Shown: piece after piece, positions 1,390 to 64,000 of the stretch
Numbering within the stretch: position 1 is the stretch's first letter
Layout: each line of letters starts with the position of its first letter
Assembly (NCBI GenBank): GCA_026770705.1
Contig: JANJGN010000005.1
Location: forward strand, 47,678,001 to 47,742,000
Reading direction: 5' to 3'
DNA length: 64,000 nucleotides
Origin: Isurus oxyrinchus
Lineage: Eukaryota
Translations under genes and position numbers: made by a program
The notes under the pieces: generated by a model
Databases searched by the model: none
What the model was told of the DNA's origin: nothing
What the model saw: the letters and a program-made list of their open reading frames with translations, nothing else

Positions 1390-1570
1390 AAAAACAAAAA
1401 AACTGCGGATACTGGAAATCCAAAACAAAAACAGAATTACCTGGAAAAACTCAGCAGGTCTGGCAGCATCGGCGGAGAAGAAAAGAGTTAACGTTTCGAG
1501 TCCTCATGACCCTTCGACAGAACTAGATGCTGCCAGACCTGCTGCATTTTTCCAGGTAATTCTGTTTTTG
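1390..1570. mobile_element. Penelope pLTR-derived, partly inverted insertion inside CR1
   Basis: Matches the terminus of the Penelope element at 62180-62320. Flanked by a 14 bp TSD with one mismatch: AACCGGTACTTCAT (1376-1389) and AACGGGTACTTCAT (1571-1584). Confidence 0.88.
1485..1524 (-). ncRNA. Minimal type I hammerhead ribozyme motif (CUGUCGA variant)
   Basis: Minus strand reads AGUU CUGUCGA A GGGUC-AUGAG-GACUC GAAAC GUU AACUC. Confidence 0.65.
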
Positions 1571-4432: not shown

Positions 4433-5491
4433 TTTCAAGCTTTTAAAACCAGCTGTTTTAGAATTGTTAACCACCATTTCTAATTTACTGTGGCTTCTAT
4501 TTTACTCTAATCAACCTCATTAAAAAGAACCCACTGCCTAAAGGAAAATTAAGACTACAATAGAACAACGAGGTAGTGATAGCAATTAAAATGGAAGTTA
4601 TCTCATTTCTGGGTTCCTATATCTTGTGAACTCCCTTCTCACCATTTAGAAATTAACAGGGCACCACGTGGGGGATTGGATTCCCTGCTGATCAATGTGG
4701 GTTAACAATACAAGAGCAAACTACTGTGGATGCTGAAAATCTGAAATAAGAACATAGGATATAGGAAATAGGAACACAAGGTTTAGGAGCAGGATTAAGC
4801 CATCTAGCCCATCGAGGCTGCTCCGCCACTCAATAAGATCATGGCTGATACGGTTATGGTCTCAGCTCCACTTTCCTGTCAGTCCCTTAACCCTTGACCC
4901 CCCTTGTTGGTCAAAAATCTGTCTAACTCTGTCTTGAATAAATTCAATGACCCAACTTCCACTGCTCTCTGGGGAAGAGAATTCCACACACTAAAGAATT
5001 TCTCCATATCTCTGTCTTAAAAGGGAGACCTCTTATTCTTAAACTGTGTCCCCTGGTTCTTGTCTCACCCCACAAGTGGAAACATCCTTCCAGTATCTAC
5101 CCATCAAGTCCCTTCAGGATCGTATATGTTTCAATAAGATCACCTCTCATTTTTCTGAACTCCAATGGATTTGGCACAACCTATCCAACCTTTCTTCATA
5201 GGATGAGCCCTTCATCCCAGGAATGAGTTGAGTGAAACTTCTGTGTAGCTTCTAATGCAATTAAAGCTTTTTGTCAAATAAGGAGACCAAACCTGTACAC
5301 AATATTCCAGATGTGGTGTCACCAATGCCCTGTAAAACTTCAGCTGCAATAAAACCTCCCTACTTATATATTTGATTCCCCTTGCAATGAACACCAACAT
5401 TCCATCGCCTTCCTAATCACTTGCTGTACCTGCATACTAACATTTTGTAATTCATGTTCCAGGGCACCTAGATCCCTCTGTACCACCAAGT

Positions 5492-5605
5492 TGGACTCGA
5501 AATCAAGTTCTGTCGAAGGGTCATGAGGACTCGAAACGTCAACTCTTTTCTCCTCCGCCGATGCTGCCAGACCTACTGAGTTTTTCCAGGTAATTCTGTT
5601 TTTGT
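5492..5605 (+). mobile_element. Penelope pLTR fragment inside CR1
   Basis: GTTCTGTCGAAGGGTCATGAGGACTCGAAACGTCAACTC...CCAGGTAATTCTGTTTTTG, near-identical to 30426-30530. Confidence 0.85.
5506..5545 (+). ncRNA. Minimal type I hammerhead ribozyme motif (CUGUCGA variant, GUC cleavage triplet)
   Basis: AGUU CUGUCGA A GGGUC-AUGAG-GACUC GAAAC GUC AACU; stem I AGUU/AACU, stem II 5 bp. Confidence 0.7.
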
Positions 5606-7717
5606 TCTGCAATCTCACTCCATTTAAATAGTATAGCACATTTCCATTCTTCTTGCCAAAGTGGACAAATTCACACTTTCTCACATTATACTCCATCTGC
5701 CAATTTTTTGCCCACTCATTTAACCCGTTTATATCCCTTTGCAGACTCTCTACTTCCTCTTGACAACTTACTTTCCTACTCACCTAGACGTCATCAGCAA
5801 ATTTAGCGACCATACATTTGGTCCCTTCATCCAAATCATTGATGTAGATTGTAAATAGCTGATGCCCCAGCATTGATCCCTAAGGCACTCTGCGGGTCAG
5901 AGCTTGCCAACCCAAAAATTACCCATTTATCCCTACTCTCTGTTTCCTGTTAGCTAACTAATCCTATAGCCATACCAATATGTTACCCCCTCAACAATGT
6001 TTTCTTGTCTTGTATAGTAACTTTTGTTGTGGCACCTTATCACCTGCTGTATCTGCATGCTAACATTTTGTAATTCATGCACCACGACACCTAGATCCCT
6101 CTCGGAAATCCTTTTGGAAATCCAAGTCCACCACGTCTACGGTTGCCATTTTTTCCACCTTGCTTGTTGCTTCCTCAAAAAACTCTAATAAATTAGTTAA
6201 ACATGATTTCCTTTTCACAAACCCATATTGACTCTTCCTAATCAAATTATGATTTTTTAAATATCCTGCAATAACCTCCTTAATAATGGATTCTAGAAAT
6301 TTCCCTATGACAGATGTTAGGCTAACTGGCCTGTTTCCTGCTTTCTGTCTCCCTCCTTTTTTGAATAGAGGTGTTACATTAGCTATTTTCCAATCCACTG
6401 GTATCCTTTCAGAATCTAAGGTATTTTGGAAGATTATAACCAATGCGTCTATTATCTCTGCAGCCATTTCTTTTAAGATTCTAGGATGTAGGCCATCTGG
6501 TCCTGGGGAGTTGAGGGCCTTTAGGTCTAATAGTTTCCCCAGCACCTTTCCCCTACTAAAGATTGTTCTAAGCTCCTCCCTCCCGTTCGCATTTTGATTT
6601 TCAAGAATCTTTTGGAACCTTCCTACATCTTCTACAGTGAAGACAGAGACAAAATACCTGTTGAACGCCTGCACCATTTCCTTGGCTTCCATTATCAATT
6701 CCCCAGACTCACTCTCTGGTGGACCAACAGTAGCTTTATTTATTCTGTTCCTATTTAAATACTTGTGGATACTCTTACCATCTGCTTTTATATTACTAGT
6801 TAGCTTTCTCTCATACTCAACTTTCTCCCTGTTTTTTTTACTCATTCTTTGTTCTTAAAATCTGACCAATCTGCTAAACTACTGCTAATCTTTGCAGATT
6901 TGTACAGTGTTTTTTCAATTTGATGCAATTCTTAACTTCTTTATTCAGCCATGGATGATGCATTCTTCTCAAAGAGCCTTTCTTTCTTACTGAGATAAAC
7001 CTTTGCTGAGAGTTATTAAATATCTCCTTAGAAATCTGCCATTGCATTTCTACTGTCCTGCCTTCTAAACCAGATTCCCAGTTCACCTTAGCTGACTCTA
7101 TTTTCATACCCTTATAATTATCAATATTCAGGTTTAAAACACTAGTCTTAGACCCATACTTCACCCTTTCAAACTGAACATGAAATTCTATCATGTTATG
7201 ACTGCTGACACCTAAAGGCTCCTTTTACCAAGAGGTTATTAATTAATCCTGTCTCATTGCTCATTACAGGTTTAGGATAGCCTGCTCTCAAGTTGGCTCT
7301 ACAACATGCTGCTCTAAGAATTTGTCCCACATACACTCTATGAACTCATTTTCCAGGCTACCTTTGCCAATCTGAGTCATCTAATCTACACGCAGATCAA
7401 AGTCAACCATGATTATTATGGTACCTTTCTTATACACCCCATTTATTTTGTCCTGTAAACTCTGTCCTACAGTGTAACTACTTTTAGTGGGTGTATAAAC
7501 TATTCCCACAAGTGACCTCTTACCTTTCCTATTTCTTATCTCTACTCAAACTGATTCTACATATTGTTCTTTTGAGCTAAGGTCACCTCTCAACCCTGTA
7601 CTAATGACATCCTTAATTAACAGAGCTACCCAACTACCATTTCCTAGTTTCCTATCTTTTTGAAATGTCAAATACCCTTCAAGATTCAGGTCCCAGCCTT
7701 GGGCACCTTGCAACCAT

Positions 7718-11310: not shown

Positions 11311-11616
11311 GGGTTGGATTTCACCAGGGACAGGCTGGGGGCAGGGAGGAGCCAAAAAATGGTGAGGGAAGGCTGGGGGTTTGGATCATCCGTCATCCTT
11401 CCTTTCGCCAAGGCATTCCACCTATGGGATTGGCATTTTACCACTGACAAGTGGGCCCTCTGCTGGGTGGGAAGATATCCTGGGGAAACCTGGCACCCTC
11501 TGTGTGGGCTTGGGTGGGTGCGGGGGGGTGGTTTCTAATCAGGCCTATGGAATTATCTCCCTAAGTGGCTGCCCACATGACAACATCACCCCCAGCCTCA
11601 CTGAACTCCTCCCCCA

Positions 11617-11711
11617 CCTGAAGAAGGGTCATATGGACGAAATGTTAACTCTGTTTCTCTCTCCACAGATGTTGCTAGACCTGCTGAGTTTTTCCAGCAT
11701 TTTCTGTTTGT
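11617..11711 (+). mobile_element. Penelope pLTR fragment with degenerate hammerhead (canonical CUGAAGA core), inside a MITE-like stretch starting at 11311
   Basis: CCTGAAGAAGGGTCATATGGACGAAATGTTAACTCTGTTTCTCTCTCCACAGATG...TTTTTCCAGCATTTTCTG. Confidence 0.7.
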
Positions 11712-12165: not shown

Positions 12166-12500
12166 AGGTGTTCAAAGATGGGGGTGGGGGGGGGTGCTCA
12201 GAGCTGGGGGTGGGGATGGAATGGGTGCTTGGATCTGGGGCCGGGAGCGGAGGCGGTGCTCGGAGCTTGAGGTGGAAGTGGAGGAGGTGCTCAGAACTGG
12301 GGGTGGGAGGGGGAAGTTGGGCTCAGAGCTGAGAGCTGGGGGTTGGAGGGGTTGCCCGGATCTGAGCGGGGCAGGGGGAACCTCAGAAGTGGGGAGCCCA
12401 GTAACGAGGACTCCAGGAGTGGGAAGCCCTGAGGTGGGGAGCTGAAGGTGGGGGGCCCAGGACTGATGAGCCCAAGACCGGTGAGCCCAGGCCTCCAGAG
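12166..12500 (+). repeat. G-rich degenerate minisatellite
   Basis: Repeated GGTGCTCAGAGCTGGGGGTGG-like units. Confidence 0.7.
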
Positions 12501-12517
12501 TGGAGCACGAGGCAGCA

Positions 12518-13585
12518 GGAATGGTTGATGGATGCCCTTGCGAATGGAAAGTTGTCTCAAGTGGTGCTCCACAGGACTCAGTGTTGCGACCCTTGCTGTT
12601 TGTGTTATATATTAACGATTTGGATATGAACGTGGGGGGCACGATTGGGAAATTTGCAGATGACACAAAGATTGGCCGAGTAGTGGATGGTGTAGAGCAT
12701 AGCCATAATCTCCAAAATGATATAGATGGGTTGGTGGAGTGGGCGGTAAAGTGGCAGATGGATTTTAATACAGAGAAGTGTGAGGTTATACATTTAGGAA
12801 AGTCAAACAGTTACAGGGATTACACGATAATTGGGAATATACTAAGAGGGGTAGGTGAAGTAAGGGATCTTGGTGAACAAGTACACAGGTCCCTTAACGC
12901 TGCAGTTCAAGTAGGCAAGGTTGTAAAGAAGGCATATGGAATGCTCTCCTTCATTGGCAGAGGTATAGAATATAAAAGTAAGGACATAATGTTGGAATTG
13001 TATAAAACACTGGTGAGGCCACAACTGGAGTATTGTGTGCAGTTCTGGTCACCACATTACAGGAAGGACATAATAGCTCTGGAGAGGGTGCAGGGGTGGT
13101 TTACAAGAATGTTGCCAGGGTTAGAAAAGCGTAGCTACAAGGAGAGATTGGATAGGTTGGGGTTATTTTCCTTAGAACAAAGGAGGCTGAGAGGTGATTT
13201 GACTGAGGTGTACAAAATTATGAGGGGAATAGATAGAGTGGACAGAATAAAATTGTTTCCCTTAGTGGAGAATTGTAGGACCAGGGGACATAGATTCAAG
13301 ATAAGTGGCAGAAGGTTTAGGGGGTAAATGAGGAAGAACTTTTTTAAGCATTGGGTAGTGGTGTCTGGAATTCACTGCCCAAATTGGTGGTAGAGGCAGA
13401 AATTCTAAACTTTTTAAAAAAATATCTGGATCTGCACCTAAAGTGCTGTAAGCTGCAGGGCTATGGGCTGGGTGCAGGAAGGTGGGATTAGGAAGGGCAT
13501 CTGTGTGTCCTCGGGCTGGCATGGACAAGATGGGCTGAATGGCCTTCTTCTGTGCTATAACTTTTCTGTGGTTCTATGTTCTATG
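12518..13585 (+). mobile_element. Young 5'-truncated CR1 LINE
   Basis: Uninterrupted frame 12500-13327 with GAPQDSVL...KFADDTKIG...QFWSPHYRKD; 3' UTR like the copy at 1-3164; tail TTCTATGTTCTATG. Confidence 0.93.
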
Positions 13586-30320: not shown

Positions 30321-30566
30321 AAACAAAAACAGAATTACCTGGAAAAACTCAGCAGGTCTGGCAGCATCGGCGGAGGAGAAAAGCGTTGACGTTTCGAGTC
30401 CTCATGACCCTTCAACAGAACAGAATTCTGTTCTGTTGAAGGGTCATGAGGACTCGAAACGTCAACTCTTTTCTTCTCCGCCGACGCTGCCAGACCTGCT
30501 GAGTTTTTCCAGGTAATTCTGTTTTTGTTTCGGATTTCCAGCATCTGAAGTTTTTTGTTTTTGTCT
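30321..30566. mobile_element. Palindromic Penelope pLTR insertion
   Basis: Arms 30321-30425 and 30426-30530 with 3 mismatches and no spacer; perfect 14 bp TSD CTGCATACTATGCT (30307-30320 and 30567-30580). Confidence 0.92.
30430..30468 (+). ncRNA. Minimal hammerhead ribozyme motif (CUGUUGA variant); mirror copy on the minus strand at about 30383-30421
   Basis: GUU CUGUUGA A GGGUC-AUGAG-GACUC GAAAC GUC AACUC. Confidence 0.7.
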
Positions 30567-55544: not shown

Positions 55545-55950
55545 GAGTAAAAGCAAAATACTGCGGCTGCTGGAGCTCTGAAATAAAAACAGGAGGTGCC
55601 AGAAAAACTCAACAGGTCTGGCAGCACCTGTGGAGAGAGAAACAAAGTTAACATTTTGAGTCTAATATGACTTCTTCGGAACTGAAGGGAGGTAGAAATG
55701 CAATGTGTTTTAAGCTGTTGAAAAAGGGCATAGGTCAGATAGAACAAAAGGGAAGGTCAGGGATGGGTTAGATGGCAGGGAAGATAAAATACAAAAGATG
55801 TCATGGAACAAAAGGCAAAGGGAGAGGCAATGGTGTAGTAAAGAAACAAATTATAGGTCCAGAGTAGGTGTTTAATAGCAAAATAAATGTCAACTCAGTC
55901 CGAAAGCAAAAACAAGATACAGACTATCACTTGGCAAAAAAAAATTTCAA
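55545..55950 (-). mobile_element. Penelope 3' UTR/pLTR, older copy
   Basis: AAAAGCAAAATACTGCGGCTGCTGG...AAAAACTCAACAGGTCTGGCAGC...; degenerate hammerhead at about 55645-55683. Confidence 0.75.
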
Positions 55951-62177: not shown

Positions 62178-64000
62178 CTAAAAGCAAAAAACTGTGGATG
62201 CTGGAAATCTAATACAAAAACAAAAATAGAAATACCTGGAAAAACTCAGCAGGTCTGACAGCATCTGCGGAGAGGAGCACATTTAACGTTTCGAGTCCAT
62301 ATGACTCTTCAACAGAATTAAAGAAAAAGAGGTGAAATATAAGCTGGTTTAAGGGGGGAGGGGCGGTGGGACAGGTAGAGCTGGATAGAGGGCCAGTGAT
62401 AGGTGGAGATAGCCAAAAGATGTCACAGACAAAAGGACAAAGAGTTGTTGATGGTGGTGATATTATCTAAGAAATGTGCTAATAGGTGACATTAAGGGTA
62501 GAAAGCAGGACAAACAAGGTAAAGAAAGCGCTAGTGGGGGTGGGGTGGGGTGAAAGGATCGAAATAGGCTAAAAGGTAGTGATAAAACAATGGATGGAAA
62601 TACATTTAATAATGGAAATAGGGGGGAAAAGAAAAATCTATATAAATTATTGGAAAAAAGGGGAATCGGAAAGGGGGTGGGGATGGAGGAGAGAGTTCAT
62701 GATCTAAAATTGTTGAACTCAATATTCAGTCCAGAAGGCTGTAAAGTGTCTAGTCGGAAGATGAGGTGTTGTTCCTCCAGTTTGCGTTGAGCTTCACTGG
62801 AACAATGCAGCAGGCCAAGGACGGACATGTGGGCATAAGAGCAGGGTGGAGTGTTGAAATGGCAAGCGATAGGGAGGTCTGGGTCATGCTTGCGGACAGA
62901 CTGAAGGTGTTCCGCAAAGCAGTCACCCAGTCTGCGTTTGGTCTCTCCAATGTAGAGGAAACCACATTGGGAGCAACGAATGCAGTAGACTAAGTTGAGG
63001 GAAGTGCAAGTGAAATGCTGCTTCACTTGAAAGGAGTGTTTGGGCCCTTGGACGGTGAGAAGAGGGGAAGTAAAGGGGCAGGTTGCATGGGAAGGTGCCA
63101 TGGGAGGTGGTTGAGCTGTAGGGGGTGATGGAGGAGTGGACCAGGGTGTCCCGGAGGGAATGATCTCTGCGCAATGCCACCGGGGGCTGGGGGGCGAGTG
63201 GGGTGAAGGGAAGATATGTTTGGTGGTGGCATTACCCTGGAGTTGGCGGAAATGGCAGCGGATGATCCTTTGAATGCGGAGGCTGGTGGGGTGATAAGTG
63301 AGGACAAGGGGGACCCTATCATGGTTCTGGGAGGGAGAGGAAAGTATGAGGACGGATGTGCGGGAGATGGGCCGGACACGGTTGAGAGCCCTGTCAACAA
63401 CCGTGGGTGGAAAACCTCGGTTAAGGAAGAAGGAGGACATGTCAGAGGAACTGTTTTTGAAAGTAACATCATCAGAACAGATGTGACAGAGGCGGAGGAA
63501 CTGAGAGAATGGGATGGAGTCCTTACAGGAAGCGGGGTGTGAGGAGCTGTAGTCGAGGTAGCTGTGGGAGTCGGTGGGTTTGTAATGGATATTGGTGGAC
63601 AGTCTATCACCAGAGATTGAGACAGAGAGGTCAAGGAAGGGAAGTGTCAGAGATGGACCATGTGAAAATGATGGAGGGTTAGAAATTGGAAGCAAAATTA
63701 ATAATTTTTTCCAGGTCCAGACGAGGGCATGAAGCAGCACCAAAGCAGTCATCGATATACCATAGAAAGAGTTGTGGGAGGGGACCGGAGTAGGACTGGA
63801 ACAAGAAATGTTCCACATACCTCATAAAGAGACAGGCTTAACTGGGGCCCATGCGGGTACCCATAGGCACACATTTTATTTGGAGGAAGTGAGACGAGTT
63901 TCAGGAGAAATTGTTCAGTGAGAGAACAAGCTCAGCCAGACGGAGGAGAGTAGTGGTGGATGGGGATTGTTCGGGCCTCTGTTCGAGGAAGAAACGGAGA
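62178..64000 (-). mobile_element. Penelope-like retroelement (RT C-terminus, GIY-YIG endonuclease, 3' pLTR), continuing beyond the window
   Basis: GTRMGP and YIDDCFG RT motifs; LPFLDL...YKPTDSHSYL; VYCIRCSQCGFLYIGETKRRLGDCFAEHL...PSGLN; frameshifted. Confidence 0.93.
62281..62319 (-). ncRNA. Minimal hammerhead motif in the pLTR of the coding Penelope (CUGUUGA variant)
   Basis: Minus strand reads AUU CUGUUGA A GAGUC-AUAUG-GACUC GAAAC GUU AAAU. Confidence 0.62.

Follow-up and report, generated by a model that had tools for sequence, protein, structure and literature searches.

A lineage-fixed U at core position 6 of the minimal hammerhead motif in an abundant Penelope-like retrotransposon

The hammerhead motifs described here carry U instead of the canonical A at core position 6 (U6 and A6, respectively). 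U6 is genuine and fixed in its lineage; it alters the core of a ribozyme of known type and has a published cousin in a natural A6C hammerhead. Because it is found in intact, 99.9% identical units with an open reading frame, the variant belongs to autonomous, recently active elements, and the U6-bearing Penelope is the most abundant jumping gene of the genome. Selection on the fold after U6 arose is fairly well supported by comparison of living copies, and we see about an even chance that the motif is an attenuated, still selected ribozyme.

Hammerhead motifs in the window

In the window (the whole stretch of 64,000 nucleotides that was analysed) the initial annotation had described five motifs with U at core position 6, and all five were found, with stem II and the ACGU palindrome retained as described. 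The features are as follows:

5506..5544, + strand: U6 minimal type I hammerhead of the youngest subfamily, core CUGUCGA, C3 at 5510
5506-5509/5541-5544, + strand: stem I of this motif (AGUU...AACU)
5510-5516, + strand: core C3-A9, U6 at 5513
5517, + strand: extra A after the core
5518-5522/5528-5532, + strand: stem II GGGUC/GACUC with loop AUGAG
5533-5536, + strand: GAAA
5536-5539, + strand: palindrome ACGU
5540, + strand: putative cut after C17
5491..5606, + strand: solo 5′-truncated pLTR insertion (116 bases) around the 5506 motif, homology starting 19 bases before C3
1486..1524, − strand: U6 hammerhead copy, CUGUCGA, C3 at 1520, U17 at 1490
1525-1570, + strand: short inverted pLTR fragment beside the 1486..1524 hammerhead
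30384..30422, − strand: U6 hammerhead, left arm of an inverted insertion, CUGUUGA, C3 at 30418, C17 at 30388
30429..30467, + strand: U6 hammerhead, right arm of the same insertion, CUGUUGA, C3 at 30433, C17 at 30463
62281..62319, − strand: U6 hammerhead of an early U6 subfamily, CUGUUGA, C3 at 62315, U17 at 62285
62697..63821, − strand: decayed Penelope-like ORF, 3′ part (RT thumb, Cys linker, GIY-YIG region)
11614..11650, + strand: older copy with A6 (CUGAAGA), stem II and palindrome decayed, C3 at 11618
55645..55683, − strand: older A6 copy, C3 at 55679, A6 at 55676

The 5506..5544 motif equals the minimal hammerhead (min-HHR) consensus of Figure S3 in PMC4209133, as far as that source was available, except at position 6; it departs from the invariant core CUGANGA...GAAA...UH at this position only. 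Neither an ORF nor a partner hammerhead was found beside the 5491..5606 insertion. Immediately 5′ of stem I, at 5493-5505 (+ strand), the 3′ half of the motif is partly repeated in the youngest subfamily (GGACTCGAAATC), and this repeat is predicted to compete with stem I.

Since the two arms at 30.4 kb belong to one inverted insertion, the five motifs represent only four independent U6 insertions. Their description as young copies holds for 5506, a member of the youngest subfamily, but not for the 62315 copy: it falls into an older U6 subfamily that is ∼82% identical to the youngest, has the stem GAGUC/GACUC with loop AUAUG and lies ∼380 bases behind the ORF stop. The protein of the adjacent ORF remnant is ∼81% identical to that of the young family; taken alone, the remnant gave no Pfam match. 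Two of the five U6 motifs (1520, − strand; 62315, − strand) end in GUU instead of GUC. The two copies reported to keep A (C3 at 11618 and 55679) indeed do so, yet both are decayed elsewhere: the former has lost two bases of stem II and has U for C15.2, and the latter shows U4C, G12A and again U for C15.2. An Rfam scan of the window yielded no match to hammerhead models at E up to 5, A6 copies included; miRNA matches at 30385-30466 merely reflect the inverted repeat. The window also contains LINE reverse transcriptase fragments (1265-1759, +; 2433-2891, +; 6075-6854, −; 12485-13327, +), which we take to be CR1-like, and the 1520 hammerhead insertion interrupts such a fragment.

The element, its abundance and the origin of U6

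Intact copies were found at locus L095 as 3,330-bp tandem units, 99.9% identical, with an open 918-aa frame from ATG that matches RVT_1 (E 6.9e-8) and GIY-YIG (E 8.9e-4, just under Pfam's cut-off). DKG and YIDD motifs are visible in the protein, and a C-x4-C-x2-C linker precedes the GIY-YIG region. It fits the CX2-5CxxC pattern between RT and EN that, according to the available text of PMC8557442, defines the Neptune type, Nematis having a similar motif. Tandem units, inverted truncated pairs and two 3′ ends are present, as in pseudo-LTR elements. Judged by domains, linker and copy structure, the element is a Neptune-like EN+ Penelope retrotransposon. All three hammerheads of L095 carry U6, as do all three of a second tandem array, L092, with units of the same 3,330 bp; in intact units the motif lies ∼400 bases after the ORF stop and ∼140 bases before the next ORF start. 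The proposal that an A-to-U lineage had amplified is thus borne out by intact tandem units with the open 918-aa frame and by the dominance of U6 in the genome.

Some further observations concern the units themselves. The inner repeats of L092 share a 7-base deletion behind the hammerhead, and two upstream ORFs of this array are frameshifted near their end. On the minus strand of L095, 51-137 bases behind the cut site, a GT...AG stretch of ∼87 bases lies between repeat and ATG. A 5′ intron is known in Penelope elements, and the stretch looks like one; the corresponding splice joint was absent from the contig sets of four RNA runs. Contigs from four RNA runs cover the motif (contigs show neither ends, strand nor level). 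At window positions 5550-5590 (+ strand) the older subfamilies have a branch-point-like TTAAC, a pyrimidine tract, CAG and then ATG just behind the hammerhead; in the later U6 subfamilies the AG has become CG, and a donor-like CAG/GTAATT and a 10-codon upstream frame are found. Metagenome scans gave no match with the motif pattern and a single locus with the element protein (L316), which has no hammerhead.

In the whole genome (4.98 Gb), the repeats of which resemble those of cartilaginous fish, exact patterns were counted 89,556 times with U6 versus 4,923 times with A6, the latter an undercount because older copies match an exact pattern less often; a reversed-pattern control for U6 gave no match genome-wide. 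Evenly spread genome samples of 1.2 Mb contained 134 matches, 82 with the core present: 53 with U6, 27 with A6, one with C6 and one unassigned, from which ∼220,000 U6 copies are extrapolated. U6 in the window motifs is neither chance nor decay. Standard CUGANGA searches would miss this commonest hammerhead-like motif of the genome. In a second organism (organism B), which has ∼70% of the family's words in common, no other letter at position 6 reaches 2% in run X7 (38,067 contigs), a tally from which diverged A6 copies may be clipped. Run X20, filed as a coral metatranscriptome, contains 312 contigs of the Penelope family, probably from stray fish nucleic acid.

A tree was built from 84 copies over 831 columns (ORF end, UTR and repeat), two of 86 long copies being left out as one chimeric and one very old. 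It is ladder-like, with canonical CUGAUGA copies at its base, and above one node (support 98) 73 of 77 copies have U6, the remainder being 2 C, 1 G and 1 A; one U6 copy lies outside. This topology suggests that U6 arose about once, from a canonical core, on a ladder-like master lineage. The path from the U6 node to the youngest copy measures 0.27 substitutions per site, and the changes followed in the order: A-U to G.U in stem II, three loop changes, GUU to GUC, and finally N7, where U gave way to G and C. The GGGUC stem and the GUC triplet are also present in a side lineage with A6, so these two changes reached both branches of the U6 split either in parallel or through recombination. Two candidate side lineages were rejected. 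A6 back-mutants in a young context (115) are no commoner than G6 (87) and occur on mixed backgrounds, which argues against a revertant A6 lineage; a change of G16.2 to U (11 U and 9 C versus 1,307 G) proved to be background decay that the query had enriched.

Probable selection on the fold since U6 arose

We compared five U6 age groups of living copies (7, 12, 11, 9 and 31 copies), omitting 8 of 84 as transitional or discordant. Only 1 of 30 core and stem sites differs among the groups, by an A-U to G.U change that keeps pairing. The share is higher at free sites (4/8, p 0.004; six group-to-group differences), linker sites (5/16, p 0.015) and UTR sites (71/317, p 0.006); core versus free sites gave p 0.02 and a pooled comparison p 0.01. 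Changes within the motif since U6 affect N7, loop II and N17, which are free to vary in a hammerhead. The repeat downstream of the motif is conserved as well (4 of 45 sites differ).

If U6 had hitchhiked in a successful master and the remainder had lacked the time to change, the motif would be an unselected relic. In line with such a history, the 1/30 is not significantly different from third codon positions (17/132, p 0.11), nor are the ten core bases alone different from the UTR (p 0.08), a baseline that may itself be inflated by alignment error in simple sequence. No compensatory stem change has occurred since U6 arose. Survival of the motif's two CpGs, considered as a sign of selection, adds nothing, since ORF CpGs on the master line survive too; low private mismatch rates in the core were likewise discarded, as an artefact of retrieval by similarity. 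However, free and linker sites close by changed often, the sole stem change keeps pairing, and the pooled comparison is significant, so that we consider a relic improbable.

Copy counts and pairing give a view beyond the age groups. The exact 35-mer of the youngest subfamily occurs in 55,523 copies; freeing its 8 core sites gives 57,822 (+4.1%), freeing the 9 stem II sites 59,167 (+6.6%) and freeing 7 free sites 64,539 (+16.2%). The core and stem II rates (0.5 and 0.7% per site) look like post-insertion decay, and the free-site excess is largely one amplified loop variant (8 among the first 100 matches listed). In an alignment of 48 random copies, from which one of 49 was omitted for an internal deletion, 91.7% of stem cells are paired, a value reached in none of 500 shuffles, and three stem II pairs show two-sided change, mainly from the oldest A6 subfamily. 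Covariation of stem II, proposed as a genome-wide check, is therefore present, but it predates U6. The initial annotation had left a choice between an active or attenuated ribozyme and an element that no longer needs cleavage; this alternative stands, and the comparative data favour continued selection on the fold.

Insertion ends bear on whether the motif is cut. Nested patterns across the cut site matched 92,936, 91,158, 89,575 and 88,018 copies of the young family genome-wide, a loss of 1.74% across the site versus 1.91% and 1.74% beside it; hence there is no excess of insertions starting there, and such cleavage fossils were discarded as a candidate for this family. In our sample 5 of 58 A6-type and 1 of 79 U6-type matches start near the cut site, the boundaries of old copies being unreliable. 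New copies are made by reading across the uncut motif, in agreement with reports on the anole element. The 5′ ends of short copies instead cluster at the hammerhead's 5′ edge: 35 of 79 U6-type ends lie within −12..+11 of C3, a tally in which inverted pairs are not independent, as do 26 of 58 A6-type ends, which are less reliable (sample: L031-L090, L105-L164 and the window ends 5491, 1527 and 30421/30430). This cluster may mark a transcription start or a stall or fold-back point of the reverse transcriptase.

U6 is predicted to open a UGU(U)/(A)ACG pairing by which the core is closed and the palindrome masked, with a U6-A15.1 probability of ∼0.98 in early U6 groups, 0.5 with G7, 0.13 with C7 and 0 with A6. 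When 100-200 bases of context are included, the predicted probability of a hammerhead fold is close to zero for the youngest U6 subfamily and an A6 copy alike, and a double hammerhead is placed 3.5 kcal above two folded monomers and above monomers in every group. Such poor predicted folding is in line with a need for protein help.

These results are also compatible with a catalytically dead ribozyme whose fold is kept for a non-catalytic job, be it a binding or pausing site for protein, terminal-repeat pairing via ACGU for a template jump, or an overlapping internal promoter. Position-6 changes cripple hammerheads, the anole element inserts normally in vitro when its hammerhead is catalytically mutated, with no RNA ends seen at the cut site, and Naiads thrive without hammerheads; no revertant has spread, starts at the cut site are not in excess, conservation extends to the adjacent repeat, and the 35 of 79 U6-type starts near C3 imply an event at the motif other than the cut. 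Yet a plain hairpin or promoter does not predict fixed C3, G8, A9, G12, A13 and U16.1 next to changing N7 and N17, and core and free sites differ (p 0.02). The extra UGUU/AACG helix made by U6 was rejected as a selected structure, being lost again in the two youngest groups. We therefore regard a dead but retained fold as a serious possibility that falls short of an even chance. Its narrower form, a hammerhead that lost catalysis and is selected for ACGU pairing of terminal repeats or for pausing of the reverse transcriptase before a template jump, appears doubtful to us; if true, a vertebrate retrotransposon would have reached more than 10^5 copies although its ribozyme was dead, and Penelope elements would need the fold, not the cut.

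For the attenuated, still selected ribozyme we propose the following. The motif is the hammerhead in the terminal repeat of an autonomous Penelope-like retrotransposon, in whose master lineage A6 changed to U, and it likely still cleaves itself, though slowly and in dependence on dimer formation and protein. Within a transcript of several units, two hammerheads may pair via ACGU into a double hammerhead, folding possibly being aided by the element's own protein by analogy with the anole element, and cutting after C17 would be rare or late. Reverse transcription appears to start 70-110 bases downstream and would have to read through the motif, so the element would lose little by cutting weakly, and what cutting is left would maintain selection on the remaining core. 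The changes after U6 run towards competence, as GUU became GUC and the N7 changes weaken the predicted U6-A15.1 mispair. The low activity that natural A6C hammerheads retain and the protein-assisted cutting of the anole hammerhead (both below) speak for it as well. Against an attenuated ribozyme stand the CUGA mutants of a saturation study and the slowdown by A6C (both below), the slowness of minimal hammerheads even with their canonical core, the non-significant p values of 0.08 and 0.11, the conservation of the downstream repeat, the single loop variant behind much of the free-site excess, the failure of a revertant to spread, the lack of starts at the cut site and the poor predicted fold.

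In vitro, Penelope hammerheads cut slowly; the one reconstituted system inserts without their activity, and some clades lack them. The genome constitutes a natural experiment on what they do, with ordered subfamilies before and after the core mutation, intact mutants and, for control, thousands of relatives that kept A6. Should U6 cut, a supposedly crippling change would be tolerated by a minimal hammerhead, probably with the aid of protein or metal; should it not, the element would manage without cleavage in vivo and its fold would serve some other purpose.

Comparison with known hammerheads and Penelope elements

The largest catalogue of Penelope hammerhead variants is reportedly that of Lunse 2017. 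An A6U hammerhead was not found in the available parts of PMC4209133, PMC3088659, PMC7151607, PMC9901934, PMC11167929, PMC8557442, PMC6765202, PMC6155905, PMC7229834, PMC12192606, PMC11014351 and bioRxiv 10.64898/2026.07.22.740005, from which absence from print does not follow, and literature searches for a hammerhead with A6U gave a twister paper only.

The closest relatives are the min-HHRs of metazoan Penelope-like elements, with the consensus CUGANGAH..GAAAN-palindrome-NUH; as far as PMC4209133 was available, they are weak as dimers and their named core variant is U3-A8. Both they and the present motifs are type I, with a 4-bp stem I, a 5-bp stem II starting G-C, an extra base between 9 and 10.1, a palindromic 15.1-16.1 and no stem III, and both reside in the pLTR of an RT and GIY-YIG element that occurs mostly as solo or inverted truncated copies. 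The accessible rows of Figure S3 in that source all have A6, whereas here U6 is found with the other ten core bases kept.

A natural pyrimidine at position 6 in an otherwise intact core has a precedent in phage Bcep176, the A6C hammerhead of which cleaves at less than 0.1 per min; the same source left repeats with core mutations out of its alignments (PMC3088659, available in part). That case is a single, weakly active phage motif with C6, in contrast to the U6, dimer-type minimal motif of a lineage of ∼10^5 copies. According to the available text of PMC7151607, A6C is poor in Mg (0.004-0.05 per min at 1-3 mM) and good in Mn (0.3 per min), and slowed one ribozyme from 0.3 to 3.55e-6 per min at 0.3 mM Mg; A6U is not among the variants assayed there. 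In the saturation study (PMC9901934, likewise in part) all single CUGA mutants had low activity, which a second change did not restore in any of them.

Cutting by the anole Penelope hammerhead requires the element's protein, and catalytic mutants of this hammerhead insert normally, as stated in the accessible portion of PMC11167929, in which no mention of a position-6 change was found. This element, Poseidon PAc, shares with ours the tandem units, a hammerhead near the ORF start, two 3′ end points (‘tail’) and a reverse transcription that starts downstream of the hammerhead on uncut RNA; PAc, however, is a Poseidon-clade element with an ORF that begins within the motif, while here the Cys linker is of Neptune type and the ATG lies ∼140 bases behind the cut site. 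Naiad and Chlamys elements lack canonical hammerheads (PMC8557442, in its available part) and are thus similar in apparently proliferating without one; they belong to another clade with another domain order, whereas in the present element the motif has been kept except for one base.
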